Source: a virus
Virus record (IMG/VR): IMGVR_UViG_3300046454_000825
Span: 14,876-78,875 of that record
Direction: 5' to 3' (one strand)
Length of the DNA: 64,000 bases
The position numbers were made by a program, and so were the translations under genes. The first letter of the stretch is position 1. Each line of letters opens with the position of its first letter. The notes under the pieces are model-generated. The model was not told the DNA's origin, ran no database searches, and worked only from the letters and a program-made list of their open reading frames with translations. Of this stretch, positions 10 to 62,769 are shown in pieces.

Positions 10-207
10 ATGGCGCTCAGCTTCCTCAGCTTCGAGGAGCTGCCCAGCGAGGATCGCCCGCCGCGCCGCATCTGGCTCAGCCACGAGAAGCTGAAGGCAC
101 ACTTCGACGCCGTCAAAGCCCGCCAGAAGGAAAAGGCGGACCCCGACAACGAGCCGATCGAGGACCCGGTGGATAACCCGGCCGCGAGGGATCTGATTGC
201 CCGGTAG
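10..207 (+). CDS. C-terminal part of tail assembly chaperone (probably 5'-truncated by window edge)
   Basis: Directly upstream of and overlapping the tape measure gene; assignment is positional only. Confidence 0.5.
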   Translation: MALSFLSFEELPSEDRPPRRIWLSHEKLKAHFDAVKARQKEKADPDNEPIEDPVDNPAARDLIAR

Positions 208-3200
208 CTTCGACTTCGGGGCATTCGAGAAGGAAGCTGCTCAGCTTCTCGCTCAACTGCGCGCCAGCGCGGATCGCATTGCCGCGGTCGAGAAGGAGAT
301 CAAAGGCGGTCGGGCGACGACCTCAGAGGTTCGCTCGGCCGCAAGTGAGCCTGCCGCCGCCGGTGCTCCCGGTGAGGTCTCCAAGAGCGCAGAGGCGGAG
401 ATTCGTAGCAGGGGGCTCGCCACCGACCAGCTCCTGGCCAAACAGCGCGAGCTGACCACTGCGACGCGCGCTTCCTCAGAGTCCGAGCGCGTCATGGCGC
501 AGACGATGGCCCAGACCAGCGCCGGGATGCAGAAATCCGGTGCCCTCACCAACGAGTTCGTCGACGCTGCCAAACGCGGTGAGGTAACGGTCAGGGAGCT
601 CGGACAGCAGGTTGCCGGGACGATCGCGAAGTTCGGTGGCTGGATCGTCGCCGGTTCGGCCGTGTACTTCGCCTTCGATGCGCTGTCTGCTGTTAAGCGC
701 GGCGCGATCGACGCATCCTCAGGGGTGAATGAGCTGCAGCGAGTCGTAAACGGCGTCAACACCAGAAAGGCTCAACAGGAATTCCAATCGCTGGCCGGTC
801 ACTTCAACCTCCCGATCAAAGAGGTCGCGGACGCGGCCTACGAAATGGGGAAGGTCTTCAACAATCAAGAGCAGGCGTTCACTGCTGCCAAACAGGTGCT
901 TTACGCGGTCAAGATCGGCGAGCTCGACACTGCGGCTGCATCTCGGTACCTGATCTCGATCATCAACGGCTTCCATCTCCCTGCGAGTCGGATGGCCGAT
1001 GTGCTCGATCAGGTCAACCAGGCTCAGAATAACTTCGGCGTATCGACCGAAGATGTTCTCTCGGGTGTGGCGAAGGCATCAGGTGCCTTCCATCAGGCCA
1101 GCGGTGAGTTCAAACAGTACGGTAAGGACTACAGCTACCTGCTGGCTCTGATCACCACCGGTGTCAAGGTCACCGGCCAGACCGGGCCGACGGTCGGTAC
1201 CGCGATCGCTCGCGCCCCCAACTTCCTCCGTCGCCCATCCAACCAGGAGGTGCTCCGCCAGTTCGGCATTGAACCGAACGGGCCGATCGAGAAGGTGTTG
1301 AACGAAGCCTTCAAACGGGTGAAAACCCTCACCGGTAAACAGGTCCAGGAGCTCGCCGCCGGGATCGGCGGTCCACAGTATGGAGCGCGTGTCTTCACTG
1401 GGCTGCTCTCCAACTACCAGAAATTCAAAGAAGTATCTGAGGGGACCTCGCCGAAAGCCTCGAAAGGATCTGCACAGCGAGAGCTTAATCGACAGCTTGG
1501 TGGTGTCAATGAGCAGGTTACAAAACTAGGGATCTCCCTCGAACGAATTGGTGAGGGACTTGTCAGCTCGCATCTGCTCGATTCACTGGGTCTCATGTTG
1601 GGTTCCATTAATTCGCTGTTGAGTGGTGTCAATTACCTCGTTCAGGACTTCAGCAAATTGCCTGATTTCACTCAGAAGTTCTTGGCCTATCTCATACAGG
1701 CTTCGATCGTGCTTCGGCTCATGCGCCGGGGTCAGGTGGGCGAGCTAATTGGAGGTGGCCCAGGGGCTCAGCCGGGTGCTGTCCGAGGTGGGATAGCCGG
1801 CTTCTTCGGCGAGGGGGACAAGGGTTTCGCTCGTCGCGCGCGCACAAGCCTGGTCAACGAGCAGGAGGCTCTCCTTCGCGAGCGTGGTGGCCTGGGTGGT
1901 CAGCTCTCCAGGGCAGCGGCCGAGGAACGTTACACAGGTCAGGGTGCAGTCGCGGCTAACGCGGCCCTGATCAAGGAGCAGCAGCGCTCCGGACCTCTCA
2001 GCGCCGAGACAGCAGCAGCGCAGACCCGTCAGATTGCCGCCGAGCGCGCCTATGTGGCAGCGCAGGAAACGACGATCGCCCTGAAGCAGAAAGAGGCCTC
2101 CTCGGCTGAGCGGCTGGCCAGCGTGCAGGCCTCCCTGAGCAGGGTCAATAACTTCGGCGGTCGACTCAACACCAAAGCCGCATTGGAGGAGGCCCGTAGG
2201 CAGGGGCTGCCGTTGCCGGCCGGGTACGGCAAAGGTGGTGTCGAGCCTCCCGTCCGGCTCGCCACGCCGGTCCTGCCCTCCCAACAGGCCGAGCTCGATG
2301 CGGTGAAAGAGATGGAAAAACGCGGGCTGATCCCGCCGGGTCTTGAAAGCGAGACCCAGCGCGCGACTCAGTCGACCGCCGGCGCTACGGGGCGTCTCAC
2401 CGGCCTGGGGCAGAAATTCGGCGGGCTCCGCGGTGGCCTTGGCAAGATGGGCGGCGCGATGAGCCAGCTTCTCGGCCGCGCCGGTGAGCTCGCCTTCGCC
2501 GCCTTCACGATCGGCTTCCTCGCTGACGCGCTCACCGGCGTCGCCAATAGCGTCGGTAGCGAGTTCGAACACGTCGGTTCGAGTGTGACCAGCGCCAAAG
2601 CCGCGGCCGAACGGGCGAAAGAAAACGCCGAAGGATCAAAAGCAGGTGAATCCTTCAAGGAGCGCCTCTTCAACGCGGTCACCGAACACACCAACATCGG
2701 ACCGGTTCCGATCCCGACACTTGGTCTTGGCTCACAGAAGGGCATCGGTGAAGAACGGGCAGAAGCCGAAGAACAGGCACTTGCCACCTACCGGGAGATC
2801 CAGAGCCTCCAGGCCAAAGAGCGCGGTAGCGGTAAAACAGTTCAGTACCGGTACGCCTCAGACATTGAAAAAAACATCAAGCAGGTCGAAAAGTCCGGCA
2901 AGAGCCGTAAGGAAATTCGCGAAGCTCTTAACAAGTACGACGAACAGATCGCACAGTCTTCGCAGGCACTGCTGGGTGGCAAAAACGCCAAAGGTGAACT
3001 CGAACAGGCGAAGACGGTTCTCAGTAAAGCGAGGGTCAAGAGCGCTGCGAGTAACGAACTGGTTGAAAAGCTGCAGCTACTTACCTCGAAAGAAATCTCC
3101 GAACGACTGCAGGCGTCGGTCACACAGCTCGGGGGCACACTCGGCCAGGGTTACAACGCAGGCGCAGCAAAATCTGCGGCCCTTAAGTATCAGGCGCTCG

Positions 3201-4678
3201 TCCAGAAAGCGGGAGCCAGCCACGACGCGACATCTGTGCAGGAACTCGCGCAGGCGCGGCAGGCCTACTTCTCAGGGATTCAGAGCGCCGTCTCCGGCGA
3301 CCTGCAGTACGCACTCGACTTCGCGAAATCGCCGGGTGAACGAGGGGCGGCTTATGCACAGGCGATCTCTCGCTACCAGGCATTCGGCAGCAGCTCCGAC
3401 GATGCGGCGAAGAAAGCTCAGGCCAACCTCACCAAGCTGACTCAGGAACGGGCGAAACTCCAGAAGCGTCAGTTCGCGCCAGAGACGCCGGGCAAAGAGG
3501 TGCACCCCAGCGAAATCGCCAAAGAACAGAACACGGCGAAAGCGATCCACGCACTCGATCTGGAAATCCAGGCCGAGACCAAAAAGATCAGCGACATCAA
3601 AAAGAGTCAGACCGAAAAGCGCAAATACATCAAAGACATCATCCAGCAGCTCCGCATCCAGGAGTTCGAAGCCAACAGTGCACTTCGCCAGGCGCAGGAG
3701 GGTGCGCGCGAGGCTCTCACTGCCAACCCGATCGTGCAGACCGAAGAGCAGATCAAATTCCTCGGTGGGCAGATCTCCAGGGCGATCGCGATCTACGGCA
3801 AGGAGTCCCAGCAGGTGCTCGGTCTGATCGCCGAACAGCGCCAGGCGCGTCAGCAGCTTGCCCAGAACGAACTATCGCTCTTCCAGAGCAAAGGTGGGCT
3901 GGAAACGGCAGGGATCATCGAACAGGTCCCGAAAGAGAAAGTCACGCTGCGCGGTGCCCACGGACTCGAAGCGCAGCTTGCCTTCGTCAAATCTCACGAA
4001 AACCAGTTCGACCCGAAGACTCTGATCGACCTGGAGACGCAGGTGGCCGCGGCGAAAGCCCAGCTTGCCTTCGACATCCAGCAGGAAGCCAATCAGGTCA
4101 AGGACGCGCACTTCGGGATCGAACAGGCTCGCGCGACCGCGGCCGGCCACACTGTACGTGCAGCCGAGCTAGCCGTCCAGCAGGCGAGATACGACGTCTC
4201 CCATGCTCAGACGCCGCTCGAAAAACTGGGAGCCCAGCAGAACCTGATTCAGAGTCTGGCGGCGAAGCGCGACGCGGTCGCTCAGGCCCGGGTGGAATCC
4301 ATCACCTTCGAGGCGAACATCTCGAAAATCACCACGCAGCAGGAGATCGAACAGCTCGAAACGCTCTTGCACACGTACAAACTGAGTCTCTCCGCCCGTC
4401 GCCAGCTCCGCGAGCAGATCCACTCGCTCAAAGGTCAGCTCTCCAGTGAAGGCGAAAAGTTCAACCTCAACATCGGCGACTTCGCACTGCCGACGGCCTA
4501 CGACATCCGGCGTGCGGTGCTCGGTGCCGGCGGCGGTCGCGGCGGCACGACGGTCACGCAGACCAACGAATTCCACATCGAGAACCACTCAAATGATCCC
4601 GCCGTGCTCGGTCGAGCGATCGGTCACGCTCTCGGCCGCGGCGCGGAGTCCGCAGCTCGATCGGCAGGAGTCGTATGA
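197..4678 (+). CDS. tail tape measure protein
   Basis: 1493 aa Ala/Gln/Glu/Lys-rich helical protein with a TP901-type core (aa ~170-450) and hydrophobic segments; followed by tail genes; TTG start. Confidence 0.9.
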   Translation: MPGSFDFGAFEKEAAQLLAQLRASADRIAAVEKEIKGGRATTSEVRSAASEPAAAGAPGEVSKSAEAEIRSRGLATDQLLAKQRELTTATRASSESERVMAQTMAQTSAGMQKSGALTNEFVDAAKRGEVTVRELGQQVAGTIAKFGGWIVAGSAVYFAFDALSAVKRGAIDASSGVNELQRVVNGVNTRKAQQEFQSLAGHFNLPIKEVADAAYEMGKVFNNQEQAFTAAKQVLYAVKIGELDTAAASRYLISIINGFHLPASRMADVLDQVNQAQNNFGVSTEDVLSGVAKASGAFHQASGEFKQYGKDYSYLLALITTGVKVTGQTGPTVGTAIARAPNFLRRPSNQEVLRQFGIEPNGPIEKVLNEAFKRVKTLTGKQVQELAAGIGGPQYGARVFTGLLSNYQKFKEVSEGTSPKASKGSAQRELNRQLGGVNEQVTKLGISLERIGEGLVSSHLLDSLGLMLGSINSLLSGVNYLVQDFSKLPDFTQKFLAYLIQASIVLRLMRRGQVGELIGGGPGAQPGAVRGGIAGFFGEGDKGFARRARTSLVNEQEALLRERGGLGGQLSRAAAEERYTGQGAVAANAALIKEQQRSGPLSAETAAAQTRQIAAERAYVAAQETTIALKQKEASSAERLASVQASLSRVNNFGGRLNTKAALEEARRQGLPLPAGYGKGGVEPPVRLATPVLPSQQAELDAVKEMEKRGLIPPGLESETQRATQSTAGATGRLTGLGQKFGGLRGGLGKMGGAMSQLLGRAGELAFAAFTIGFLADALTGVANSVGSEFEHVGSSVTSAKAAAERAKENAEGSKAGESFKERLFNAVTEHTNIGPVPIPTLGLGSQKGIGEERAEAEEQALATYREIQSLQAKERGSGKTVQYRYASDIEKNIKQVEKSGKSRKEIREALNKYDEQIAQSSQALLGGKNAKGELEQAKTVLSKARVKSAASNELVEKLQLLTSKEISERLQASVTQLGGTLGQGYNAGAAKSAALKYQALVQKAGASHDATSVQELAQARQAYFSGIQSAVSGDLQYALDFAKSPGERGAAYAQAISRYQAFGSSSDDAAKKAQANLTKLTQERAKLQKRQFAPETPGKEVHPSEIAKEQNTAKAIHALDLEIQAETKKISDIKKSQTEKRKYIKDIIQQLRIQEFEANSALRQAQEGAREALTANPIVQTEEQIKFLGGQISRAIAIYGKESQQVLGLIAEQRQARQQLAQNELSLFQSKGGLETAGIIEQVPKEKVTLRGAHGLEAQLAFVKSHENQFDPKTLIDLETQVAAAKAQLAFDIQQEANQVKDAHFGIEQARATAAGHTVRAAELAVQQARYDVSHAQTPLEKLGAQQNLIQSLAAKRDAVAQARVESITFEANISKITTQQEIEQLETLLHTYKLSLSARRQLREQIHSLKGQLSSEGEKFNLNIGDFALPTAYDIRRAVLGAGGGRGGTTVTQTNEFHIENHSNDPAVLGRAIGHALGRGAESAARSAGVV

Positions 4679-7223: not shown

Positions 7224-7687
7224 TGCCAGAGCCAGCCCTACAAGCACTGGAGCGCTCCTTCAAGGGGCTGCGAATCGGCGCGACGCTGGACATGCAGAAG
7301 CTGAAGGACCGTGCCGAAAAGGACGGCCTGATCGAGCGCGACGAGCAGTTCCACCTGGCGGTGGCCGGTCTCGCAGAGGAGTTCTTCCTGTGGACGTCGA
7401 CGAAGATCAAATTCGCCACCGCGTTCGTTGACGCAACGGGCCAGAGAGATTCACCCTTCGACCGTCCACATATCTCGGTCGGCTGCGAGATCTACACACC
7501 GGTGCCGGTGGCGATCAACGCGGTGGTCATGGAATGGGACGTGACCGACCGGAATGAAACGGTAGGCGCGACCGTGGCGCTCGGCGTCGCGAGTTCCGAT
7601 CAGACCACCAAGTTCAAGGGCGCTGTGCATCTGACCTTCCAGGGCTACGGCGCGCCACTCAACACCTTCGACGACGCCGAACTATGA
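7223..7687 (+). CDS. minor tail protein
   Basis: 154 aa, translationally coupled within the tail operon. Confidence 0.55.
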   Translation: MPEPALQALERSFKGLRIGATLDMQKLKDRAEKDGLIERDEQFHLAVAGLAEEFFLWTSTKIKFATAFVDATGQRDSPFDRPHISVGCEIYTPVPVAINAVVMEWDVTDRNETVGATVALGVASSDQTTKFKGAVHLTFQGYGAPLNTFDDAEL

Positions 7688-10600
7688 AAAAGACGATCTT
7701 TGCCGGCTTGACGATCCTCGAACCAGGGGAGGGCCTCAGCACTGACAACGGGTCGTTCGTCGACGCAGATCCGCAGATCGTCGATCGCTTGCTGGAAATC
7801 GGAGCCAAAACCCATCGCCACACAGGCCTGGCCGGGCTCTCCAACCCCTCCGGTGCGCCGGTGGCGAGCATCGTCGCCTCAGGGGGCGCTCTGCCATCGG
7901 ATCTGGCCATCTCCGTCGGATACACACTGGAGGACTCCCAGGGCGGCGAGACGCTGCTGTCGCCGATCACGGTGGTCGGCACGCCGGGCGAGATCCCCGC
8001 GCCGCCAGCGGCACCCAGCGCCCAGGTCAGCCACGCGGCCGGGCAGCTTGAGGTCAACACCTACTACTACGCGACGACCTTCGTAGACAATGAAGGCGGC
8101 GAGACGGAGCTCGGACCCGCGGTCAACGCCGAGCGCCAGCCCGGATTCGCGTCGGGCCAGGTCATCCTCACCCAGCTCTCCTTCGGCATGGCTGCAGCCG
8201 GCGCGGCAGGCTGGCGTCTCTATCGAGCGGTCGGTGGCGACACCTTCAACCTGCTCGCGACCGGCAGCGGAGACGAATTCGTCGACGATGGTAGCCAGCC
8301 GGTGAGCTGCGACGTCCACCCGCCGGCGGGCGAACAGAACACGACGGTCGGATCGTCCTCGCTGCTCGTGACGCTGCCGTCCGCGGTCCCCGGGCAGGTC
8401 TTCATCAACGTCTATGCGTCGATCTCGGGCGACTTCGGTGGCAGCAGCCTGCTGGGGCAGTTCCCGCTGGCCAGCGCCGGGCAGATCGCCGTCTTCCGCT
8501 CGCTCGAATTCTTCGACGTCAACCCGCCGTCGGTCAACCTCTCGATCGGGGGGGCGCACCAGATCGACCCCGACACCGAGCTCCTGGACTGGCACTGGAA
8601 GCGCCCGGTCCTCGCGTCGGGTGCCCTCGGGTCGGGCGTGACCGGCGACGTGCGGCTCGTGAAGAGCACAGGCGAGCTCTACGCCGTGCTCGCGCCGTCC
8701 GCAGTCGCCTCGGGCGCGAGCGAATGGGTGAGGATCGCCAGCGCTGGCGGCGGCGGCAGCGGCAGCGTCGGCCCGCAAGGACCCACCGGCCCACAGGGTC
8801 CAGAAGGGCCAGCAGGTCCGAAAGGTGCCAGCGGGGCAAGCGGTGCGATCGGTCTGACCGGGCCGCAGGGTCCGACCGGCCTGACGGGTGCCACCGGGCC
8901 ACAGGGTCCGACCGGTCCCGGTGACAGTTGGAAGCCGCCCGTCTTCGCATCCGCCAGTCTCGGCTCGGGTGTGCTCGGCGATGTGAAAATGGTCGAGCAG
9001 GAAGGTGAGCTCTACGGTGTGCTCAGCGCGTCCGCCTCCACCGCCTCCGCGTGGGTGAAGCTGAGCAGCGCCAGCACGCTTGAAGCGAGCGCGACGCAGG
9101 GCATCGTCGCGCCGGTCCAGAGGCTCACCATCCGGGCCTCCGGGGTGGCGATCGTCGACATCGTCAAACAGTCGGCTGGGCGCGCGCTTTACACAGTCAC
9201 CGTTCCTCCTGTCGCCGGCCCCCAGGGACCAGAAGGACCGAAAGGAGCAAGTGGCGCATCGGGTGCAATTGGCCTGACCGGTCCGACCGGTCCACAGGGT
9301 CCAGAAGGACCCGCCGGTCCCAAAGGGGCTAGTGGTGCATCCGGTGCCATCGGGCTGACCGGGCCACAAGGTCCGCAGGGAGAAAAAGGCACAACTGGGG
9401 AAAAAGGTGAACCAGGAGAAACCGGTCCTAAAGGCGAAACAGGATCAACGGGTGCTACTGGCGGAACGGGTCCGCAGGGACCAATTGGTCCGGGCAATAG
9501 TTGGAAGCCTCCGGTTCTGGCGTCGGGCAGTCTTGGCTCGGGTGTACTCGGCGACGTCAAAATGGTCGAGCAGGAAGGCGAGCTCTACGGTGTCCTGAGT
9601 GCCTCAGCCTCAGTCGCTTCCGGCTGGGTAAGGCTAAGCAGTGCAAGCTCGCTCGAAGCAAGTGCCACACAGGGTCTTGTCGCCCCAGTTCAGAGACTCA
9701 CGATTCGGGCATCTGGAGTAGCGACTGTCGACATCGTCAAACAATCCGCAGGCCGTGCCTTATACACAGTTACGGTGCCCCCAGTCGCAGGCCCCCAGGG
9801 GCCACAGGGAGTGCAGGGTGAAAAAGGAACCACCGGGGAAAAAGGTGAAAAAGGTGAAAAAGGATCGACCGGCGAAAAAGGCGAAACCGGGTCGACTGGA
9901 TCGACCGGGGCCACCGGTGGGACTGGGCCGCAAGGTCCGGTAGGGCCAGGTAATAGCTGGAAGCCCCCTGTCCTCGCATCGGGAAGTCTGGGGTCAGGTG
10001 TACTCGGTGACGTCAAAATGGTCGAGCAGGACGGTCAAATTTATGGCGTTCTCGGGGCATCGGCCACGGTGGCGTCGGGGTGGACAAGACTGGCGAGCGG
10101 CATCTTGACCGCTAGTGCTAACAACAGTGTCCCTGGAGTAGCCCAGCTTGTGAACAAGCTCACCTTCGAAGGTGCGGAGGGAGTGAGAGTTGCCATCTCC
10201 CAACCGAAACTTGGAGAGGGAGTAATCACCGTGAAAGCGGGTGCGGGGGGGCTGATCTATAAAGGGGAGAGTTCCACCAATCTGGCAACAACCAACTTAG
10301 CGTGTCTTCGGAAGAACAAAGAAAAATGGAGCGAAGTCACCGAAATATGCCTTTCCATTGAATCCTTGAACTGGACCACCGCTGAAGATCTTCTCCTAAA
10401 AGGGATGGCAGTCGGTTCGGTCATAGTGATCTCTGTTCAAAGCGAAGAGAACGTCAGGCCTATTCGCCAGATGTTCAAGATTACGAGCATCGAATCGACG
10501 GCGAACGGTCCGATCGCCAAAGTGGTTGGCCTCTCTACTACTTCGACAGCTACTGCGAACGAAATCGCCTTCAAGGAACTGGAGGTAGAGTTCTACGCCC

Positions 10601-11121
10601 CGTTTCATTACGGTCTCGTCACGGCCTTGCCAGCATCGCCAAGGCTCCTTGACAGGTGTAGCTTTATCGCGGATGAAACAAACGGTGTCATCTGGGAGCT
10701 GCTTTATGACGGCGAAGGCACAAGGCCGTGGAAGAAGATTGGTGGACCTCCACTCTTCAATGAGGTCGCTACCCAGGAGACGATCAAATCAGCGACCTAC
10801 GCGAACCTAGCGACAGAAGGTCCGTCGGTCAAAGTGCCGCTACTAGGTGATTACGACGTAGCAATCGGGGCTGGGATCGGGTCGTTCTCGCCCTCAGTAG
10901 AAATCAATATGAGCTACGCGATCGGCGGAACCGCCGCTGTGGATGCTGATTGCCTCAAAGTCTTCCCAGGCCCCAACGGATGCTTCGTGGAGGCTAAGCG
11001 GGTACGGCGTAAGGCATCAATCGCGAAAAACACCACACTCTTGAGTAAGTACAAAATATCCGGTGGCGAAGGATCATTCTACTTCCGCTGGATGAGTGTT
11101 GATCCGATCAGAGTCGGCTAA
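7684..11121 (+). CDS. collagen-like tail fibre / receptor-binding protein
   Basis: 1145 aa; three Gly-X-Y tracts separated by repeated globular modules; N-terminal ~310 aa paralogous to 11130-12524; lower-GC C-terminal domain. Confidence 0.85.
8596..10110 (+). repeat. four copies of a WKxPVxASxxLGSGVxGDV module (starts 8596, 8929, 9502, 9958) interleaved with collagen repeats
   Basis: Seen directly in the translation; copies 2 and 3 are near-identical over ~98 aa. Confidence 0.9.
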
Positions 11122-11129
11122 GGAGAACC

Positions 11130-12524
11130 ATGAAAAAGACACTATTCGCAGGCTTGACGGTTCTCGAAGCCGGTGAGGGACTCGACACCGACAGCGGAGC
11201 CTTCACCGGCCGCGACCGCGAAACCACGGATCACCTGCTCGAAGTTGGGGCGAAGACGCATCGCCACACCGGGCTCAACGGGCTGGCCTCGCCGTCGGTC
11301 GCCCTGGGTGCGGCCGTCGTCGCTTCCGCGGGCACGATCGGCGCGGATCTTGACGTCTCCCTCGGCTACACGCTGGAGGACAGCGTCGGCGGCGAGACGC
11401 TGATCTCGCCCGTGACGGCAGTCAGCACGGGGTCGCCGGTGGAAGGCCCGCAGGCAGCGCCCAGCGCCGCGTTCGACAGCGCTGGCGGCTCGCTGCTCGT
11501 GAACACCTACTTCTACGGCGTGACCTTCACGGACGGCGAAGGCGGCGAGACGCCACTGGGTCCGACGGTCAACGTAGAGCGCCCGCCAGGCTTCGCCTCC
11601 GGCCGCGTCGACCTCTCCCAGCTCAACTTCGGGCTTGCCGCCGCTGGCGCGAAAGGGTGGCGTCTGTACCGCGCAACGGGTGGAGGGACGTTCAACCTGC
11701 TCGCCACGGGTGGCACTGGCGAAAGCACATTTGTCGATGACGGGACGAAATCCGTCGAATGCAGCGTACATCCGCCAGCCGGGGAAACAAATACGACACT
11801 GGGCATCAACACGCTGCTGGTGACGTTACCGACGACCGGCCTGGCTTCGGCGAGCTTCATCAACGTCTACGCCTCGATCACCGGTGACTTCGGGGGTGGT
11901 TCCTTCCTGCAGCAGTTCCCTGTCGCGAGCGCCGGCGCTGTCGTGCCGTTCTCGAAACTCGAACTGCTCTCGATCAGCCCACCGTCGGTGAACCTCTCGA
12001 TCGGCGGCGCGCATCAGATCGACCCGGACACCGAGCTGATCGACTACCACTGGAAGAGACCGGTGGCCAACGTCGGAGATCTGCCTGGGACCGCCGAAGA
12101 GGGCGACACGCGCATGGTGTCGTCGTTCTCCTCACCGACCGCCTACGTGTTCCACAACGGCAAATGGGAACCGTGGCAGGCCGGCGGCAGCGGGACCACA
12201 GGACCCTGGACCAGGATGACGCCGCTAGAAGGCGAATGGGAAGGCACGAGCTCTCCCGAATGGCCACCGGCGTTCCGGGTCAAGGGCGACGAGGTCGAGC
12301 TCGCCGGCGGCATCATGGAAGGAGCGGACGGAGTCACGATCTTCACCTTCCCGGTGGGAGCAAGACCCGCGGCAAACGTGCGGATAGGCCTGGGCGAGGG
12401 AGTGGCCAACGCCGGCATCACCCTCGAAGTCAAGACCGACGGCAGGCTGATCGCGATCAACTCTCAGAATGCGATCGTCTACCTGACCGGCTTGTCCTTC
12501 CCGCTGGGTGCTCCGCCCCCATGA
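11130..12524 (+). CDS. second tail fibre/RBP, paralogous N-terminus with different C-terminal head
   Basis: MKKTLFAGLT...IDPDTELIDYHWKRPV matches the 7684 N-terminus; C-terminal IFTFPVGARP...VYLTGLSF pattern typical of siphophage RBP heads; RBS AAGGAG. Confidence 0.8.
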   Translation: MKKTLFAGLTVLEAGEGLDTDSGAFTGRDRETTDHLLEVGAKTHRHTGLNGLASPSVALGAAVVASAGTIGADLDVSLGYTLEDSVGGETLISPVTAVSTGSPVEGPQAAPSAAFDSAGGSLLVNTYFYGVTFTDGEGGETPLGPTVNVERPPGFASGRVDLSQLNFGLAAAGAKGWRLYRATGGGTFNLLATGGTGESTFVDDGTKSVECSVHPPAGETNTTLGINTLLVTLPTTGLASASFINVYASITGDFGGGSFLQQFPVASAGAVVPFSKLELLSISPPSVNLSIGGAHQIDPDTELIDYHWKRPVANVGDLPGTAEEGDTRMVSSFSSPTAYVFHNGKWEPWQAGGSGTTGPWTRMTPLEGEWEGTSSPEWPPAFRVKGDEVELAGGIMEGADGVTIFTFPVGARPAANVRIGLGEGVANAGITLEVKTDGRLIAINSQNAIVYLTGLSFPLGAPPP

Positions 12525-13933
12525 TCCTGAAATTCATCAATGGCAGTCACGTTCAGCAGAACATGTGGGGCGAGGCGCTGCATCACCTGCTCCACTTTCC
12601 GTTCGAGGCAATCAACCTCACTGCGACCATCGACTTCGTCGCTTCGATCTCAGGAGGGCATACCGACCTAGCGTCTACCAATTGGACCTACGACAGCCCC
12701 ATCTCGTCCACGAAAGTACGTAAAGACGCTCCTTCATTCAGCGGTCTGCAAAGTGCGCTGGTTGCCGAGGCCGCGAAGTGGGGCTTGGAATTCTCGGCGG
12801 AGCGTTTCTACATGGAGACCGCTGTGCATGAGACAGCTCACGCTCTGTACGCAGCACTGCCCCACGCGAGGCGGGTGGCGATCGCGCAGATGTTCGGGGC
12901 GAAAAGTGACTCACTGAGTGAAATACAGCCGAACGTCGCCTGGCAGGATCGGATCATCGAGGGGATCGCGGAGACCTTCAAGGAGGCGTTCCTGCCGCGA
13001 CGCTTCAGGGTATTCCCGAACAGGACCAACAAGCGGATCTCCTACTCCATGTTCCCCGAATTCAGGGCACTGTGGCGGGCGGCAGCACCGGAAGTGGGGA
13101 TCGAAGAAGTGGGCACTGTTGAAGAACAGATGCACAAACTCGAAGAACGTGACTCCCTGCAGGTAGGACCGAAACTCAAAAATAACACCGAAGAACCGCC
13201 GACCGAAGCTGAACTCGACACGCTGTGGGCGGAATGGAAGCCGGCCGAAGACAGAGGTTGGCACATGGCCGTCGTCTCTGACCCAAACGTCGCCTATCGA
13301 ACGGTGCCCAATAACAGTGGAAGCCCGCATCGCTTGCCGAAGGAAGTCGGGGCCATTTGGCAAGGCGAGTTACTCGGAGGCGGGAAAGATGGAATGGGAG
13401 TGGTGATTTTCGAGCGATCTTTTAACTCTCACTTCGAAGCCACGATCACTGAAGATGGTGAAGTCCAGGTCTTTCTATCCGACCAGACCCTGAAAAGTGG
13501 CTACAAGCTATCGGCAAGGCGAACGAAAAGAACCGGCGAAATATACACCTACAGATTGCGCCTAGAGAGATGGGACGGGGGTGTTCCCGAAGTTCTCCAT
13601 GAAGGGACGGTCGATGAGAGCGCCTCCGGTATCGGCGACCTTGGCCTTAGCGCCAAAGACGGTGTTGTTACTGCCTGGGCTGGAGTGCCGGTGGTCCCAA
13701 TCTTCTCGGTGAACGACAGCAAATACAACGAAGGCTACGCCGGCATCGGCCTCCTCCGCGACGATCTCTTCACCGGACTCTCCGAGCCTGGGCTCACGAA
13801 CTTCCGAGCCGGCACGATTCTCTCTAACCAGCCAGGCCCACCGGTCGAGGTTCCTCCGCCCAATATCACACCTGCCGGATCGCTGGGTGGCTCCCTACCG
13901 CACAAACGTCCAATCGTAGGAAATACCCAGTAA
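12521..13933 (+). CDS. zinc metallopeptidase (HExxH) with C-terminal beta-sandwich, probably virion-associated
   Basis: ATG 12521 (ATGA overlap); VHETAH plus downstream EGIAETF third-ligand motif; last gene before a terminator. Confidence 0.6.
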   Translation: MILKFINGSHVQQNMWGEALHHLLHFPFEAINLTATIDFVASISGGHTDLASTNWTYDSPISSTKVRKDAPSFSGLQSALVAEAAKWGLEFSAERFYMETAVHETAHALYAALPHARRVAIAQMFGAKSDSLSEIQPNVAWQDRIIEGIAETFKEAFLPRRFRVFPNRTNKRISYSMFPEFRALWRAAAPEVGIEEVGTVEEQMHKLEERDSLQVGPKLKNNTEEPPTEAELDTLWAEWKPAEDRGWHMAVVSDPNVAYRTVPNNSGSPHRLPKEVGAIWQGELLGGGKDGMGVVIFERSFNSHFEATITEDGEVQVFLSDQTLKSGYKLSARRTKRTGEIYTYRLRLERWDGGVPEVLHEGTVDESASGIGDLGLSAKDGVVTAWAGVPVVPIFSVNDSKYNEGYAGIGLLRDDLFTGLSEPGLTNFRAGTILSNQPGPPVEVPPPNITPAGSLGGSLPHKRPIVGNTQ

Positions 13934-21230: not shown

Positions 21231-21551
21231 ATGGAAGCCAGAGCAAGAACCAGCGATCCGGATACATCCCACGCCGCAGCGAAGAGTGTCAAAAAGCTGA
21301 CGCTCGTTCAGACGCGGGTGTTGGCGCTATTCAGGCGGTGCGGCTCGATGACCGACACCAGGCTGATCGAGACATGGAATAAGGAACGCTCTCGGTTCCC
21401 CGACAGCTACCCCCAGATGTCGGAGTCAGGCCTGCGTACTCGCCGGCGCGAACTCGTCGACCTTGGTGACCTTAAGGACTCAGGGCTCAGGCAGGAGCTG
21501 CTGTCGGGGCGTAAGTCGATCCTCTGGTGCAGGCGTGTCGATCGCTGGTGA
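21231..21551 (+). CDS. winged-helix DNA-binding protein, common actinophage family
   Basis: ARTSDPDTSHAAA...SGLRTRRRELVDLG motif. Confidence 0.65.
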   Translation: MEARARTSDPDTSHAAAKSVKKLTLVQTRVLALFRRCGSMTDTRLIETWNKERSRFPDSYPQMSESGLRTRRRELVDLGDLKDSGLRQELLSGRKSILWCRRVDRW

Positions 21552-22336
21552 AGCCGCTGGTCATCATCCCGATGTACCTCACCGAGGACTCAGACGTGGA
21601 GACCACGATGGAAGCTGTGCGCAGCGTCCGCAAGACGGTCAGTGACAGCGTCGAGATCCTGGTCGTCGACGATCACTCACCCGAGCGGCAGTTGGTCGAC
21701 GGTATCGAAAAGGGGCTGGGGCGCTTCGACGCCGAGCTCCACCGCAAGGATGAGAACTCCGGCTTCTCCAAGACCGTCAACGTGGGCCTGCAGCGAGCGC
21801 GCGACCAAGGTCGGGACGCGGTTCTCCTCAATGCCGATGTTGAGATCAGCACCCCCGGCTGGCTGAAGATCATGCAGAAGACAGCCGATGCCAACCGTCG
21901 GCCGGCGGCTGTTGTCGGTGCGCTGCTCCTATACCCGACGGGCTTGATCCAGCACGCGGGGATCTATTTCTCCCTGCTGACCCGGACCTTCGATCACATG
22001 TACAAGTTCGGGCCGGGCAACCTACCCGAGGCGTTGATCCAGCAGAGCAGGCCGGTCACCGGCGCGTTCCAGTTCATCCGTCACGACGCGCTGATGAAGG
22101 TGGGGCTCTACGACGAGGGCTTCCAGATGGCCCACGAGGATGTCGACTACTGCATCCGGACCTACCTTGCTGGCTTGGAATGTGTATACCAACCGAGGGT
22201 CAGGGCGTTTCACTTCGAGATGATGTTCCGCGGTAGGCCTTCTCCCAAAGTGCAGGAATGGCAACAGAAGTCGTGGGTCTATTTTGCTACTAAGTACTCA
22301 ACCCAAAATTTCGCAGGGTTAGTTCCCTTCGTCTAA
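21548..22336 (+). CDS. GT-A (GT2-like) glycosyltransferase
   Basis: VIIP; VVDDHS; ENSGFSKTVNVG; LLNAD; VGLYDEGF...EDVDYC. Confidence 0.9.
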   Translation: MKPLVIIPMYLTEDSDVETTMEAVRSVRKTVSDSVEILVVDDHSPERQLVDGIEKGLGRFDAELHRKDENSGFSKTVNVGLQRARDQGRDAVLLNADVEISTPGWLKIMQKTADANRRPAAVVGALLLYPTGLIQHAGIYFSLLTRTFDHMYKFGPGNLPEALIQQSRPVTGAFQFIRHDALMKVGLYDEGFQMAHEDVDYCIRTYLAGLECVYQPRVRAFHFEMMFRGRPSPKVQEWQQKSWVYFATKYSTQNFAGLVPFV

Positions 22337-22344
22337 GGAGACCA

Positions 22345-23985
22345 ATGAACGAGTGGTGGAGATACGAGCAGCTTTCCAGCCGGTGGCCCTACGATTGGGC
22401 TCCAGCAACCCGCGGCGATCGGCCGTGGGATCAGCTCGACTTCCACCTAGACCTGGGGTGTGGTCGCGTGCCCAAGGCGCGCATGGGGATCGACCGCAAA
22501 TTCTCCGAGGGCGCGACGGATCTGGTCATAGATCTGGATGAGATATTCCTCTATCTGATGGAATCCGAGCGCAGCGGGCACCGCATGCAGGAGCTCCTGG
22601 AGTTCCCCGGCGAACGTAGACTGCCGTTCCCGACCGGCTCAATCGAGTCGATCATCACCCATCACTGCTTCGAGCACATCGGCGAGGGTTTCGAGCGGCT
22701 GATGGAGGAGTGCTATCGGGTGCTCAAATGGGGTGGCGTCATGCGTATTGTGACTCCCGTATTCCCATCATCGGCGGCGGTCTCTGAGTACGACCACAAG
22801 CGCTACTTCATGCAGGGCACGCTGATGGGGTTCTGCCAGGAGCTGCCCGGCGGCGCGTCGATCTATGACGCCTTCGCCGAGCGCTACAACTCGTGCTGCT
22901 TCCGCCAGATCGACGAGGAGGTTTCACCTCCGACGCCGGCGGAGAAGCAGTGGACAACCGAGGATGTGCGGGAGATTCGAACCACACTATGGAAATTCAG
23001 TGACGGTGAAGATGAGCCCGAACCGTCGATGTTCATACCGGAGGAGACCAATGATTTTAGTCCAATTCAAGCTGGACAAGGTGATCATCTTCGAGGGGAC
23101 GATGATGGACTCGGCGCTGCCGAGCCTGGGGGAAACGATCAAAATTCCGGGGAGCCGGCGCAAACTGAAAGTGGGGATGGTGACGAGGCGGCTCTCCAAG
23201 GGCCGAGCGAAGCAGCGCAACGGGTTGATCAAGCAGGAGGCGGTGGTGGACCTAGTCCCTTCGCATCCGTCTGCGTCCTCAGCTACGAAAGGCTGAGCCT
23301 GCTGCGTGAGTGCATCGGCTCGATGCTCGCCGGCGCACACTCACCCTTCGAGCTGATCGTACATGACGATGGCTCTCGCGATCCCGAGCTCCGTCAGTGG
23401 CTCTTGCAGATGTCCGAAGAGGGCGTGATCTCGACGCTGCTGATGAATTCCCCGGGCTGGAACGAGGGGCAGGGCATAGCGATGAACCGGATGGCCGCTG
23501 TCGCGAAGGGCGATCCGATTATCAAGTGCGACCAGGACCTCGTCTTCGAGCCCGGTTGGCTGCGCAGGGTTCAAGAAGTGCTCAACACCAACGCAAGGGA
23601 GACCCACGAAACGGGTGAGCCGATGATCGGCGCGCTGGGTATCTTCAAGTACTTCACCGATCCCGTCGACCATGAGAGGATGTTCCTTCGGGACTGGATC
23701 TCCTACGACGAAGTTCTCGATTTCGTCGGCTCGTTCATTGCGATACCGCGGACGGCGTGGGAGATCTTCGGGCCGTGGGGAGAGCGCAGCGCCGCCTTCG
23801 CCGAGGACGCCGTGTTCAAGGACACACTGCAGAAGACGGAGGGCTGGTGCTGCGCCCTGACGAAAGAGGATCTGGCCCGCAACCAGGGGTTCGGCGTCGG
23901 GCCTTCGACCGTGGTGGTCGCCGAGGGCACAGTGCAGGCGATCCAGACCGGTCCTAAGGTGATCGAGCCGGGGGTGATCGAGTGA
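22345..23985 (+). CDS. SAM methyltransferase - GT2 glycosyltransferase fusion
   Basis: N-terminal LDLGCG, LPFPTGSIESI, HCFEH, ECYRVLKWGG; C-terminal VCVLSYER, IVHDDGS, KCDQD, FAED. Confidence 0.85.
   Translation: MNEWWRYEQLSSRWPYDWAPATRGDRPWDQLDFHLDLGCGRVPKARMGIDRKFSEGATDLVIDLDEIFLYLMESERSGHRMQELLEFPGERRLPFPTGSIESIITHHCFEHIGEGFERLMEECYRVLKWGGVMRIVTPVFPSSAAVSEYDHKRYFMQGTLMGFCQELPGGASIYDAFAERYNSCCFRQIDEEVSPPTPAEKQWTTEDVREIRTTLWKFSDGEDEPEPSMFIPEETNDFSPIQAGQGDHLRGDDDGLGAAEPGGNDQNSGEPAQTESGDGDEAALQGPSEAAQRVDQAGGGGGPSPFASVCVLSYERLSLLRECIGSMLAGAHSPFELIVHDDGSRDPELRQWLLQMSEEGVISTLLMNSPGWNEGQGIAMNRMAAVAKGDPIIKCDQDLVFEPGWLRRVQEVLNTNARETHETGEPMIGALGIFKYFTDPVDHERMFLRDWISYDEVLDFVGSFIAIPRTAWEIFGPWGERSAAFAEDAVFKDTLQKTEGWCCALTKEDLARNQGFGVGPSTVVVAEGTVQAIQTGPKVIEPGVIE
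23051..23296 (+). CDS. overprinted 81-aa basic protein in the +1 frame of the fusion linker
   Basis: AGGAGACCAATG start context identical to that of gene 22345; high third-position GC in this frame. Confidence 0.55.
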   Translation: MILVQFKLDKVIIFEGTMMDSALPSLGETIKIPGSRRKLKVGMVTRRLSKGRAKQRNGLIKQEAVVDLVPSHPSASSATKG

Positions 23986-24179
23986 GGTACGCGGTGCTGT
24001 TCACCACTTCGCCCGAAGCCGAAGAAGGCAAGTCATGGGCGATCGTCGAAGCCGACGAGCCGGCGCAGGCTGTCTCGATGGTCGGTGGTCGCACGGTGGC
24101 CATGGATGACAAAGCCCTGTGCATCCCACTCGATGAGAAGCCGATCCCCGTCTACGCGACGGTTGGGTGGCACACATGA
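23982..24179 (+). CDS. hypothetical protein
   Basis: Coupled by GTGA/ATGA overlaps. Confidence 0.6.
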   Translation: MRYAVLFTTSPEAEEGKSWAIVEADEPAQAVSMVGGRTVAMDDKALCIPLDEKPIPVYATVGWHT

Positions 24180-24391
24180 GCGATCCGCAGCTCGACAAGA
24201 TCCTCAAGGACGCGATCGAGGACGCCAACCTGGCCAGCAAGAAGAGCAGGCCGAAGTGGATGGGCGGCGCGGCTCCGCGTGAACGCCTGTCGGAGTCAGG
24301 GCGCAGGAAGCGGCGCAAACTCAACAAGGCGAACGCGAAGCTCCGGCCGAAGGTCAGGAAGCGGAGTAAGCACGGGAGGCAGGTGCGATGA
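24176..24391 (+). CDS. small highly basic protein
   Basis: ATGA overlaps; Arg/Lys-rich C-terminal half. Confidence 0.55.
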   Translation: MSDPQLDKILKDAIEDANLASKKSRPKWMGGAAPRERLSESGRRKRRKLNKANAKLRPKVRKRSKHGRQVR

Positions 24392-25245
24392 AGGCAGGCA
24401 TCGTGATACCGGTTGGCCCTGGCCGGGAAGAGAACCTGGGCCGAGCGCTGGTGTCGATCGAAGAGATGAAGTTCCCGCCCGAGCACATCGTCCTGGTCTG
24501 CGACGGGCCGGAGTCAGAGGTCAGCGATCCGGGGATCTCCCTTCCTCACTCGCTCGTTGTTACGCCTCACAAGCATGAGCCCGGTAGGGAGCAGCCCCGC
24601 AACGTTGGGGTACGTGTGCTGCAGGATCTGGGCGGCTTTACTCACGCCTGGTTCCTGGACACCGACATCATCCTGGATCCCTGGGCGCATTCGCACTTTC
24701 AGGCTGCGATGGAGGTCGACACACTGGAGCGGATCCTCGTCGGTCCCTACGACTGGCTTGCGGCGAACACCAAGGTGCCAGTGCCCGACCTGCGAAACGA
24801 TCCGCGCTGGCCATCGTTCGACAACCACGACATGCCCGAGGCCCTGACCAACGACCTCAGTGCCGGCTTGGCCTGCTTCAGCGGCAACCTGATCTGGCCG
24901 ATTGAGGCCTTCGTTCGGATCGGCGGCTTCTGGAACGAGCTCCACCACGGCCGCTGTGAGGACGGCGAGCTCGGACTCCGTGCCGTGGCCTGCGGCATTC
25001 CGATTAGCTTCGTCGCCGCGGCGCGCGGTTGGCATCTCGATCACCCGATCAACGGCGAGCTGACGCTGCAGCGCAATGAGCGCGACGTCCCGATGCTGAA
25101 CGATCGCCATCCCTGGGTCCAGGGCGAGGGGCTATTTGTCGTCGAAGAGGACGGCAAACGGTTCAACACTCACTGTCGCTGTGGCTGGTCAGGCAACACG
25201 ATGGAGATCTGGGAGCACCAGGCAGGGTGTGAGCAAGCCCGATGA
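24388..25245 (+). CDS. GT-A glycosyltransferase
   Basis: IVIP; LVCDG; RNVG; FLDTD; IGGFWN...EDGELG. Confidence 0.85.
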   Translation: MKAGIVIPVGPGREENLGRALVSIEEMKFPPEHIVLVCDGPESEVSDPGISLPHSLVVTPHKHEPGREQPRNVGVRVLQDLGGFTHAWFLDTDIILDPWAHSHFQAAMEVDTLERILVGPYDWLAANTKVPVPDLRNDPRWPSFDNHDMPEALTNDLSAGLACFSGNLIWPIEAFVRIGGFWNELHHGRCEDGELGLRAVACGIPISFVAAARGWHLDHPINGELTLQRNERDVPMLNDRHPWVQGEGLFVVEEDGKRFNTHCRCGWSGNTMEIWEHQAGCEQAR

Positions 25246-26027
25246 GCCGTCTTCTCGTCTGCATACCGACCATCGAGGGCCGGGAGAAGTTCCTGGAGCG
25301 AGCCATGTGGGGCTATCGCACTCGCACGCCTCACACCGACATGCACATCGAGGTCGTTCACGACTATCCTACTTGTGGTCAGGGTTGGCAGGCGGCGGTC
25401 GAGCGGGGACTCTCTCGCTTGCAGCCGCCCCCTGACTTCATCCACTTCGGCAATGACGACATTATGGTGGCCGAGGGCTGGTTGCCGCCGCTAATAGATG
25501 CCGCCACACAGGGGTTTCTGCCGGCGTCTCGGATGGAGCCGGCTGGCTACCACCTTGGCGAAGAGCCGGCGGAAGCGATTGCGCCATGGTGGGTCAAGCC
25601 CAACGAGCGCAGCTACTTCTACTCCGATCTGCCCGAGAACCAGCCGAAGAATGACTGGGCTCCGGTCGACCACAGTGCATTGCCATTCTGTTCGGTCGGT
25701 CAGTGGCTGAAGATCGGTCGGTTCATCCCGATTCACTTCGGCACTGACAAGTGGTTCTATCACCGAGCCCGTCAGGAGGGCATCACCGCGGTCGCGCGTA
25801 TGGACTCCGTGATCTTCAACTACGCCACTCAGATCGGTAGGCAAAAGGGTGCGTGGACCGAGACCGACATCATCGACTTCGACTGTGTCTTCGCCTATCC
25901 GGCCTACGTGGAGGGGCGTTTGAAGCCAGAGGAAGAGGACCCCCAACGTCTCACGGGTTCTGGCCTGGCGATGGTTAGGCGCTGGCGTAAGGCGAACTTT
26001 GACGGACCACACCACTGGGAGGCTTGA
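25242..26027 (+). CDS. divergent GT-A glycosyltransferase
   Basis: VCIPT; FGNDD; GTDKWF. Confidence 0.7.
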   Translation: MSRLLVCIPTIEGREKFLERAMWGYRTRTPHTDMHIEVVHDYPTCGQGWQAAVERGLSRLQPPPDFIHFGNDDIMVAEGWLPPLIDAATQGFLPASRMEPAGYHLGEEPAEAIAPWWVKPNERSYFYSDLPENQPKNDWAPVDHSALPFCSVGQWLKIGRFIPIHFGTDKWFYHRARQEGITAVARMDSVIFNYATQIGRQKGAWTETDIIDFDCVFAYPAYVEGRLKPEEEDPQRLTGSGLAMVRRWRKANFDGPHHWEA

Positions 26028-26809
26028 TGGACACCACGCTTTTGATCTCGACCTTCAACCGTGCCCCGCTTCTTGATCGGTCGCTGGCGCGCCTGGCGCA
26101 GCTCACCGTTCCCGACGAGGTGCTGGTCGTCGATGACGGCAGCACCGACGAGACAGCCGAGGTCTGTGATCGCCACGCGGATCTCCTGCCGTTGACCTAC
26201 ATCTACAACCACAATCCCGAGTGGTCGATCTGCTCCATGGCCCGCAACATCGGGGTCAAAAATGCCGCCAACGAGTGGATCATTACCTCCGAGCCCGAGC
26301 TCTTTTTCGTCACCGACGTCGTTAAGCAGTTCGAGTACCTGCAGCCCGAGCATCCGGAGCAGGTGATCAGCGCTGGCACGATCTACTTTCAGCCCGAGGG
26401 AGGTCCGGATCCGAGCACGAATGTCGAGGGCCTGGAGGTCGCTGGCGACTACACGCCGCCGACGGGGATGGAGGAAGCGATCGGCTGGGTCGCTCCGTTC
26501 TCGGCTCTCTACAACCGCAACTGGCTGGAGCATGTAGGTGGGTGGGACGAGGAGTTCCCGGGTCCGTGGGGCTGGGACGATATCGACCTGCTGACCCGTC
26601 TGCGGATCAAAGGCATCAACCAACACATTGCGCTCGACGTGAAAGCCCTGCACCAGTGGCATGGGCCGAAACATCGCGGCGACGTCGACTTCCAGAACGA
26701 GCAGTACTTCCGGGCCAAGGACTTCGTCGCCGGCGGCGTCGAGTCACCGGATCTTCCGGACCTAATCGCCAACCAGGACCGTGAGTGGGGGGTGATCGTT
26801 CCCCGATGA
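26027..26809 (+). CDS. GT2 glycosyltransferase (DxD position reads EPE)
   Basis: ISTFNR; VVDDGSTD; ARNIG; VGGWDEEF..WGWDD; LHQWH. Confidence 0.9.
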   Translation: MDTTLLISTFNRAPLLDRSLARLAQLTVPDEVLVVDDGSTDETAEVCDRHADLLPLTYIYNHNPEWSICSMARNIGVKNAANEWIITSEPELFFVTDVVKQFEYLQPEHPEQVISAGTIYFQPEGGPDPSTNVEGLEVAGDYTPPTGMEEAIGWVAPFSALYNRNWLEHVGGWDEEFPGPWGWDDIDLLTRLRIKGINQHIALDVKALHQWHGPKHRGDVDFQNEQYFRAKDFVAGGVESPDLPDLIANQDREWGVIVPR

Positions 26810-27450
26810 AGTACGAGGAGCAGCTCATCGAGGAGGTCAAGACGTGGTGCATCCAGGATCCGGAGAGACGCGCGGAGAAGATGCAACGCGAGCGCATCCG
26901 GCATCCCAAACTGATCAAGGATCTGCTGCTCGACAAGCTCGACACGTCGACCATGAAGATCCTGGAGGTCGGTGGTGGACCCGAGCCCTTGAGTGACCTG
27001 CTCGACTTCGAGTTCCGCATCGTCGTCGACCCCTGCGCTGACGAGTACGCAGAATTCTTCCCGACTCCAGATCACCTGAACATGGAGGCCGAGGACATGG
27101 GAGACAGCACCTGGCACGAGACCTTCGACCTGATCATCTGCACCAACGCGCTCGACCACGTTCGGGATGTGCCATCGGTCATGAGCAGGATCTACCGGTG
27201 CCTCAAGCCGGGTGGTTACTTCGCTGTCATGTGCGCCGAGAACAACGCGATCACCAACCCGCACCCGTGCCACAAGATCAACCTGACCGCGGCCGACCTG
27301 CACCGATCGTGCGACAAGTGGGCCGAGACCTGCTGGGAGCTTACTTATAGTAAGGACGGGTATCGCTATGGCTGGGCCGAGTACCAGGGCAAGTGCGGCC
27401 AGCCGGCCTTCGCGATTCTGTTCCGCAAGGCGGTCGGGTATGAGCAGTGA
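26806..27450 (+). CDS. class I SAM-dependent methyltransferase
   Basis: ILEVGGG; FDLIICTNALDH; LKPGG. Confidence 0.85.
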   Translation: MKYEEQLIEEVKTWCIQDPERRAEKMQRERIRHPKLIKDLLLDKLDTSTMKILEVGGGPEPLSDLLDFEFRIVVDPCADEYAEFFPTPDHLNMEAEDMGDSTWHETFDLIICTNALDHVRDVPSVMSRIYRCLKPGGYFAVMCAENNAITNPHPCHKINLTAADLHRSCDKWAETCWELTYSKDGYRYGWAEYQGKCGQPAFAILFRKAVGYEQ

Positions 27451-62155: not shown

Positions 62156-62769
62156 GGAAGAAGCTGCGGCGGCTTTTGGAATGGGCGTTCGTCACTGAGG
62201 TCATCGGCCAGGACGAGTGCCCTCTGATGGAACGGTGGGAGTTCCTCAAGATCGGACTGCCCGGCCGGGAGCCGTGGTTCAAGGCGATGATCCACCACTT
62301 CCCGCCCTTCGTCACCGACGCCGACCCCCACGATCACCCGCGGCCCTTCGTTACGTTGATCCTCGCCGGCGGCTACCTGAACTCCGAGTGGACCAAGCTG
62401 GTGCCGCCGTTGGATCTCGGCGATCGCCTGCAGGAGTGGATGATCACCTACGAGTGGCTGGCCAGGGGCGACCTGCGTTTCCGGCGCGCGAACCACACCC
62501 ACATCACCGAGACGACGGCCCAGGGAGCCTGGACGCTGGTCGTCATGGGACCGATGGTCCGCAAATGGGGTTTCCTGCGTGACGGCAAGTGGCTGCCGTG
62601 GAAAAAGTACGTCGAGCGGTACGGTGGCGTCGTGCGCTGCGACACCGGCGAGCTCGACGAGAGTGAGAATGGCACCTATCCGCCCTACACCGTCGCAAAG
62701 CACGACGACAGAGAGCACAATTTTCGGGAGTACAAGGGAACGCCCCCGCCCTACGACTTGCTTGGCTGA
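62152..62769 (+). CDS. cupin-fold metal-binding protein
   Basis: PHDHPRPFVTLILAGGY; FRRANHTH; WTLV..GP..RKWGF. Confidence 0.7.
   Translation: MRKKLRRLLEWAFVTEVIGQDECPLMERWEFLKIGLPGREPWFKAMIHHFPPFVTDADPHDHPRPFVTLILAGGYLNSEWTKLVPPLDLGDRLQEWMITYEWLARGDLRFRRANHTHITETTAQGAWTLVVMGPMVRKWGFLRDGKWLPWKKYVERYGGVVRCDTGELDESENGTYPPYTVAKHDDREHNFREYKGTPPPYDLLG

Follow-up and report, generated by a model that had tools for sequence, protein, structure and literature searches.

An Ala-Ser-[Gly/Ala] signature in the collagen-like tail fibre of an uncultured soil siphophage

The window analysed here is a 64,000-nucleotide stretch, bases 14876–78875 of the 78,875-bp virus record IMGVR_UViG_3300046454_000825, which represents an uncultured phage known solely from this metagenomic record. 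The open reading frame (ORF) at 7684–11121 (+ strand) encodes a 1145-aa collagen-like fibre in which the tripeptide Ala-Ser followed by Gly or Ala (AS[GA]) is about nine times as frequent as expected by chance. This excess, confirmed and robust to statistical testing, is a family-specific signature of the small domains of the fibre that has been selected at the protein level. The interpretation we favour, to which we give about an even chance of being correct, is conformational: a hydrophobic strand end leads into an Ala-Ser-Gly/Ala turn, in small trimeric domains and also in one collagen unit. A sequence-only reading of the same DNA had proposed that AS[GA] is the acceptor of a phage-encoded virion glycosylation system, and the evidence bearing on that proposal is given together with the results.

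AS[GA] counts and distribution in the fibre

The fibre contains exactly 27 AS[GA] tripeptides, all of them between residues 65 and 810, and none was found in residues 813–1145. The sequence-only reading, which had counted about 27 by eye in the first ~810 residues and none in the C-terminal head, was exact on this point, and it had also correctly given four for a paralogous fibre (0.9 expected) and about three for the tape measure protein (3 observed, 3.8 expected). For residues 1–812, composition shuffles produced 2.8 ± 1.6 copies with a maximum of 11 in 5000 shuffles, which puts the observed 27 at a z of about 15. In residues 813–1145 only 0.48 copies were expected, so that the zero of the head is uninformative, and the idea that a glycan coat spares the receptor-binding tip gains no statistical weight from it. 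Repeats were then collapsed by masking every 9-mer at least 6/9 identical to an earlier 9-mer, which left 398 residues. These still held seven AS[GA] compared with 1.03 expected, and 0 of 20000 shuffles reached seven; the predicted enrichment over shuffled controls therefore survives the removal of repeats.

The fibre begins with an N-terminal domain and ends with a C-terminal head of 290 residues; between them lie four copies of a module A, three G-X-Y tracts and a module B that is present twice in good and once in degenerate form. The N-terminal anchor domain (aa 1–302; 7684–8589, this and all further fibre parts on the + strand) is a conserved element of about 120 metagenomic homologues; its three AS[GA] are at residues 65, 156 and 263. 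Within it, aa 75–150 comprise two similar segments with a GGET motif in each, which points to a beta-sandwich unit duplicated within the domain. Module A is a small beta domain of about 50 residues with the start WK[RP]PV. Its first copy (aa 303–356; 8590–8751; start WKRPV; three AS[GA]) directly follows the anchor domain, and one further copy stands after each of the three collagen tracts, the module B beta-hairpin units going with these later copies. Collagen tract 1 (aa 357–413; 8752–8922), a G-X-Y run matching PF01391, has one repeat unit that accounts for two AS[GA]; tract 2 (aa 511–604; 9214–9495) has two GASGASG units that account for four; and tract 3 (aa 702–756; 9787–9951) has none. 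Five AS[GA] lie in each of the three intervening pairs, namely modules A2 and B1 (aa 416–510; 8929–9213), modules A3 and B2 (aa 607–701; 9502–9786), and module A4 with the degenerate B3 (aa 759–855; 9958–10248). The head (aa 856–1145; 10249–11121), presumed to be the receptor-binding end, has none. By type of part, the N-terminal domain contributes three copies, the module A copies 13, the module B copies five and the GASGASG collagen unit six, the presence of which inside the collagen tracts had likewise been noted beforehand. The non-collagen part of the fibre holds 21 copies against 2.3 expected.

The collagen assignment itself is well supported by homology. Pfam detected collagen triple-helix repeats (PF01391, E = 3.4e-25) in four stretches, and three G-X-Y runs of 57, 93 and 54 residues are present. 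Many PHROG tail-fibre families match the protein, among them 819, 5073, 6320 and 1806, with a best E of 9e-48, the matches being driven by the collagen tracts. The gene lies downstream of that for the 1493-aa tape measure protein (197–4678), two tail genes standing between them. A trimeric collagen-like tail fibre is the best explanation of these features.

The pattern depends on residue order. ASG, with 17 occurrences, is the commonest tripeptide of the shaft, above the collagen tripeptide GPQ (12), and ASA occurs ten times; GSA, AGS, AAS and SAA are all absent from the shaft, and AAG, AGA and AAA are at or under expectation. The codons within AS[GA] include both Ser families, TCN and AGY, and every Ala codon, and this mixture rules out a motif at the DNA level. 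Two other sequon-like patterns, S[GA].T (4 versus 1.8 expected) and DS[AD] (0), were not enriched in the fibre, and [ST]G.T and G.T[GA] were enriched solely through collagen periodicity.

Modules A2+B1 and A3+B2 were compared over 8929–9219 and 9502–9792. They share 92% protein identity and 78% DNA identity, with 50 synonymous and eight non-synonymous codon differences, indicating that the module copies are old and individually maintained. By this codon pattern, the copies are under strong purifying selection, and selection against recombination between repeats may have contributed to the divergence as well. These data bear on the notion that the excess is a historical by-product of duplicated modules and a low-complexity Ala/Ser/Gly composition, the tripeptide itself being unselected. 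In its favour, 18 of the 27 copies sit in the repeated A and B modules and six in the repeated collagen unit. However, we regard it as highly improbable, as the excess outlasts repeat collapse, is specific to one order of residues, is written in Ser codons of either family and in every Ala codon, and persists in module copies that differ far more at synonymous than at non-synonymous codons. Moreover, across 119 homologues no tripeptide ranks above ASG and ASA, and this extends to the non-homologous C-terminal parts.

Family distribution, structural models and substitution spectra

The N-terminal domain is common to about 120 metagenomic proteins at 38–87% identity, many of them on contigs of 75–86 kb, and the A+B module is confined to this fibre family, with 26 representatives among 1.84 billion entries. 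Together, the 119 homologues contain 1122 AS[GA] compared with 223 expected, with some members carrying none or one. Within the small/hydrophobic alphabet, no tripeptide is as enriched across them as ASG (6.1-fold) and ASA (4.1-fold), in the N-terminal domain and the variable remainder alike. Thr in the same frame shows no such enrichment (ATG 1.2-fold, ATA 0.8-fold).

The rest of the proteome behaves differently. Leaving out the fibre, the genome holds 27 AS[GA] in total against 24.7 expected, and the relatives are alike in this respect, which rules out a proteome-wide or GC-composition bias. No protein other than the fibre is strongly enriched here or in the three closest relatives (p for the fibre from 1e-16 to 6e-6), and the remaining proteome is at or under expectation. 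The major capsid protein has no AS[GA] and the 410-aa tail tube protein has one; the other virion genes together reach 17 versus 10.9 in this genome and are non-significant in the three relatives, and non-virion genes are depleted. The proposed glycan coat over exposed virion surfaces in general is thus contradicted by the counts. Two small proteins of the virion module (190 and 146 aa) have two to three AS[GA] at conserved positions in close relatives, an excess that is lost on correction for the ~118 proteins tested. The former, encoded directly upstream of the capsid gene (L001:7077–7649), is a candidate cement protein by a sub-threshold match to Phage_cement_2 (PF09956, E = 0.03), and has three AS[GA] versus 0.27 expected. 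Beyond this group, neither gp34–37 of T4 nor the virion proteins of Che8 and Corndog, minor tail proteins included, showed any AS[GA] excess, which rules out a generic property of fibres. AS[GA] thus matches no known phage sequon and is not a feature of fibres in general.

An AlphaFold2 (AF2) model of aa 1–360, built from 80 homologues, reached a predicted local distance difference test (pLDDT) score of 91.9. In this model, all six AS[GA] either adjoin a beta-strand, before or after it, or fall within a 3-10 turn of three residues. For A3+B2, a model based on 16 module copies had a pLDDT of about 90 for module A and of 64–74 for module B, and here S8-G9, S40-G41 and the position preceding W42 were all in turns. 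Foldseek found no match at E ≤ 0.001 for either model (best 1.6e-3 for the N-terminal domain and about 1 for the module), and the fold searches together gave no whole-domain match in the PDB. VIA-align placed module A, weakly (Z ≤ 4.3), beside the trimerisation domains of collagen XV/XVIII and beside small trimeric domains from Mtd and phage tailspikes. Such a likeness would fit a mini-domain that follows each collagen tract but falls short of proving one.

Substitution columns were read from a 120-sequence alignment. In the N-terminal domain, site 66 is Ser in 82 sequences and Thr in 20; site 157 is Ser in 56, Asn in 29, Thr in 14 and Ala in nine; and site 264 is Ser in 93, Asp in 16, Thr in four and Glu in three. 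Ser, Thr, Asn and Asp form the classic set of turn and capping residues. Where Ser changes, the flanks are retained, for example as A-N-[GA] in place of A-S-[GA]. At the module sites Ser swaps with Ala and Gly, and the AS[GA] columns there are part of the conserved signature of the module across copies and phages.

Several of these results argue for a conformational role: the modelled sites lie at strand ends and turns; the Ser columns read S/T, S/N/T and S/D with flanks retained, and the module sites exchange Ser with Ala and Gly; Thr in the same frame is unenriched family-wide; the enrichment is confined to the domains of this fibre family; the motif columns belong to a conserved module signature whose copies are under purifying selection; and the weak structural neighbours of module A are trimerisation domains. 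Three relatives that retain glycosyltransferase genes and have motif-poor fibres, described below, point the same way. In the mechanism proposed, Ala-Ser-Gly/Ala, which typically follows a hydrophobic strand residue, would form a strand cap or a tight turn, with its Ser hydroxyl as the capping group and small residues on either side that permit close packing of the trimer; the one GAS-GAS collagen unit would contribute its six copies in addition. We infer this conformational role, and a role of module A as a trimerising or collagen-nucleating unit, as the best explanation of the data.

Some observations weigh against it. Fibres do not generally need the motif, as seen from T4 gp34–37 and the minor tail proteins of Che8 and Corndog. 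AAG, AGA, GAG and AAA are unenriched and GSA and AGS are missing from the fibre, so packing alone does not explain a pattern that is Ser-centred and directional. Turns and loops are also the places open to a transferase, and the replacement of a conserved Ser by Asp, Asn, Ala or Thr in relatives lacking glycosyltransferases would equally be predicted by a lost modification. Finally, the AF2 models are monomers and thus speak neither to solvent accessibility nor to trimer packing.

The glycosyltransferase island and its distribution among relatives

Some 10 kb downstream of the fibre, at 21527–28489 (+), Pfam detected a glycosyltransferase (GT)/methyltransferase island. Its products are a GT2 protein of 269 aa, a 546-aa fusion of methyltransferase and GT2, a 285-aa protein that is weakly GT-A-like, a 261-aa protein of unknown function, another GT2 protein of 261 aa and a 373-aa protein that is weakly GT-B-like. 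Six GT and two methyltransferase domains had been claimed for this genome. Three GT2 domains and one Methyltransf_11 domain exceed the Pfam cut-off; the rest is weak, consisting of the GT-A-like and the GT-B-like protein under the cut-off and one further ORF with a weak PHROG methyltransferase match.

Eight near-complete relatives were retrieved from IMG/VR. GT2 genes and island homologues were present in records G001–G005, G007, G009 and G013 and missing in G006, G008 and G012. The GT-less records (loci L038–L041, L047–L051 and L101/L116) had no match to PF00535, and G006 and G008 also had no homologue of any island gene. Among the GT-bearing fibres, those of six records are motif-rich, with observed/expected AS[GA] of 27/3.1 (G000, the present fibre), 12/1.2 (G001), 9/1.0 (G002), 9/1.2 (G003), 13/1.9 (G009) and 6/0.9 (G013), and those of three are motif-poor, with 0/0.4 (G004), 2/1.4 (G005) and 3/1.4 (G007). 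The GT-less fibres are all motif-poor, at 1/1.4 (G006), 1/0.8 (G008) and 1/1.1 (G012). Residue 264 is Ser in all alignable GT-bearing records and Asp in all GT-less ones.

This distribution lends some support to the idea that a Ser-specific protein O-glycosyltransferase from the island uses AS[GA] as its acceptor and coats the fibre shaft with sugar in the cytoplasm, before assembly or in the course of it, which we consider a tentative possibility. The island is real, and all six motif-rich fibres that could be placed sit in records with GT2 genes. In the three GT-less relatives the fibres are unenriched and the conserved Ser is lost, for example with Asp in place of S264. The motif is also Ser-centred, directional and located in turns. 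The candidate cement protein adds to these points, as its excess is accompanied by a similar pattern: it reads ASG in most GT-bearing relatives and ANG in the GT-less clade. Its first site is ASG in G000–G003 and G005 and ANG in the GT-less G006 and G008.

However, the association rests on little independent evidence. In a capsid-protein tree, G006, G008 and G012 form one clade with 100/100 support on a long branch, so GT loss is single and the association of GT genes with the motif amounts to one event (n = 1); even with the records taken as independent, Fisher's test gave about 0.09. Within the GT-bearing clade, motif-rich and motif-poor fibres are interleaved, the motif-poor G004 being sister to the motif-rich G013. 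As G004, G005 and G007 keep the island, its presence is independent of a motif-rich fibre. The GT-B-like gene is common to all GT-bearing phages, these three included, and no island gene separates the two kinds of GT-bearing genome by occurring in every motif-rich one and in none of the motif-poor ones. Enrichment in relatives lacking GTs, which would have refuted the proposal, was not seen, but with these relatives forming a single clade and three GT-bearing ones motif-poor, the co-occurrence of motif and GT genes is uninformative.

Other results also count against an acceptor role. Capsid and tail tube, which make up the bulk of the exposed surface and are the known targets in Che8, have no motif enrichment. 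No AS[GA] excess is seen among the virion proteins of Che8 and Corndog, in which the capsid and tube subunits have -GS or -DS as their last residues. Thr is unenriched in the same context, Asn occupies site 157 in the GT-bearing G004 and G009, and the substitution spectra are of the turn type. In its fullest form, the proposal would have a Ser-specific cytoplasmic O-glycosyltransferase read AS[GA] at turns of the fibre shaft, and perhaps on the cement protein, to place a methylated glycan at up to 27 sites per chain (81 per trimer) as a new type of acceptor; this we hold to be rather unlikely.

If the fibre is glycosylated, the acceptor might instead be Thr or Ser at position Y of the collagen triplets (G-x-T/S), after the manner of BclA-type collagen-like glycoproteins, with AS[GA] a bystander. 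BclA of Bacillus anthracis is an O-glycosylated collagen-like surface protein. In C. difficile, SgtA adds O-linked N-acetylglucosamine (O-GlcNAc) to Thr of the GPT repeats in BclA3 and accepts Ser (PMC7157674), a precedent at position Y of collagen-like triplets that serves this reading and the AS[GA] acceptor alike. The fibre resembles BclA3 in being a collagen-like filament with hydroxy residues at position Y, having 23 G-x-T-[GA] and six G-A-S triplets in its collagen tracts. In C. difficile, however, an O-GlcNAc transferase (OGT)-like enzyme is encoded beside its substrate, whereas Pfam scans of the island proteins and the neighbours of the fibre detected no OGT-like (GT41) domain, only GT2 and GT1/GT4-type matches, and the island is about 10 kb away. 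Furthermore, 21 of the 27 AS[GA] lie outside collagen, and the excess of G-x-T follows trivially from collagen periodicity and has no statistical weight. We therefore judge an acceptor in the collagen triplets to be improbable.

Genome context, known systems and implications

The source is an uncultured soil siphophage of 78.9 kb, and its host is probably a member of the Actinomycetota. A homologue of the N-terminal domain of the fibre (48% identity) is on L120 (JBBQZL010000293.1), a 1.9-kb contig binned to a metagenome-assembled genome of Solirubrobacterales, which is a weak hint of a soil actinomycete host. Megablast found no close named phage, and tblastn found one weak match, to Caudovirales GX15bay. 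The last ORF of the window (62769–63998) is cut off by the end of the record, and an ORF of 198 aa begins at genome base 12 (bases 12–608); the record ends may split one gene, which would suit a circularly permuted or terminally redundant genome.

Directly after the fibre, 11130–12524 (+) encodes a second fibre of 464 aa, the paralogue mentioned above. It shares the N-terminal domain with the first (60% identity) and retains the three AS[GA] sites of that domain; its collar is of the acidic 'PVANVGDLPGTAEEGD' type and its shaft is not enriched. The next gene, at 12521–13933 (+) inside a longer ORF (12164–13933), encodes about 470 aa starting with MILKF. Its product has an HExxH motif (HETAH) and no Pfam or PHROG match, and may, on the strength of this motif, be a tail-associated metallopeptidase or lysin.

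Compared with collagen-like tail fibres and minor tail proteins in general, the present fibre has the same G-X-Y tracts, the same position downstream of the tape measure gene and the same alternation of collagen with small beta domains before a head. Its N-terminal anchor domain and A/B modules, however, are confined to this group of uncultured soil phages, and its AS[GA] density is unmatched in the fibres of T4, Che8 and Corndog.

With regard to virion glycosylation, Freeman et al. reportedly found in 2023 O-glycosylation in the mycobacteriophages Che8, Corndog and Myrna, the sugars being attached to the C-terminal ends of the subunits that form capsid and tail tube, and to our knowledge these are the sole documented cases in phages. 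In the sequence records, Che8 gp6 and gp11 and Corndog gp41 and gp49 end in TGS, DGS, VGS and GDS. The present phage is similar in having a phage-encoded GT cluster in a siphophage of a probable Actinomycetota host, with virion proteins as plausible targets. It differs in that its capsid protein ends in GRIVLT and its tube protein in VKGSI, and in that the motif is internal to the fibre. A tblastn search with the GT-B-like enzyme returned no mycobacteriophage among the named matches listed. Upstream of the window, a 724-aa portal-like protein (L001:1929–4103) ends in PGDGS and a 134-aa protein (L001:605–1009) in MLTGS. By analogy, these ends resemble the Che8 and Corndog termini, and the two proteins might be alternative acceptors for the island.

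If AS[GA] is a sequon, virion glycosylation would extend from the C-termini of mycobacteriophage capsid and tube proteins to internal sites on the receptor-binding fibres of widespread uncultured soil phages. The acceptor type would then be new and distinct from the C-terminal Ser of Che8-type phages, and a sequence rule for predicting glycosylated phage proteins would be at hand. If the motif is conformational, which is somewhat likelier, it provides a compact signature of collagen-flanking mini-domains that could be useful for annotating and modelling the fibres of this group. In either case, when short Ser/Gly-centred fibre motifs are found beside GT clusters, turn-forming residues and phylogenetic independence should be controlled for before a sequon is called.

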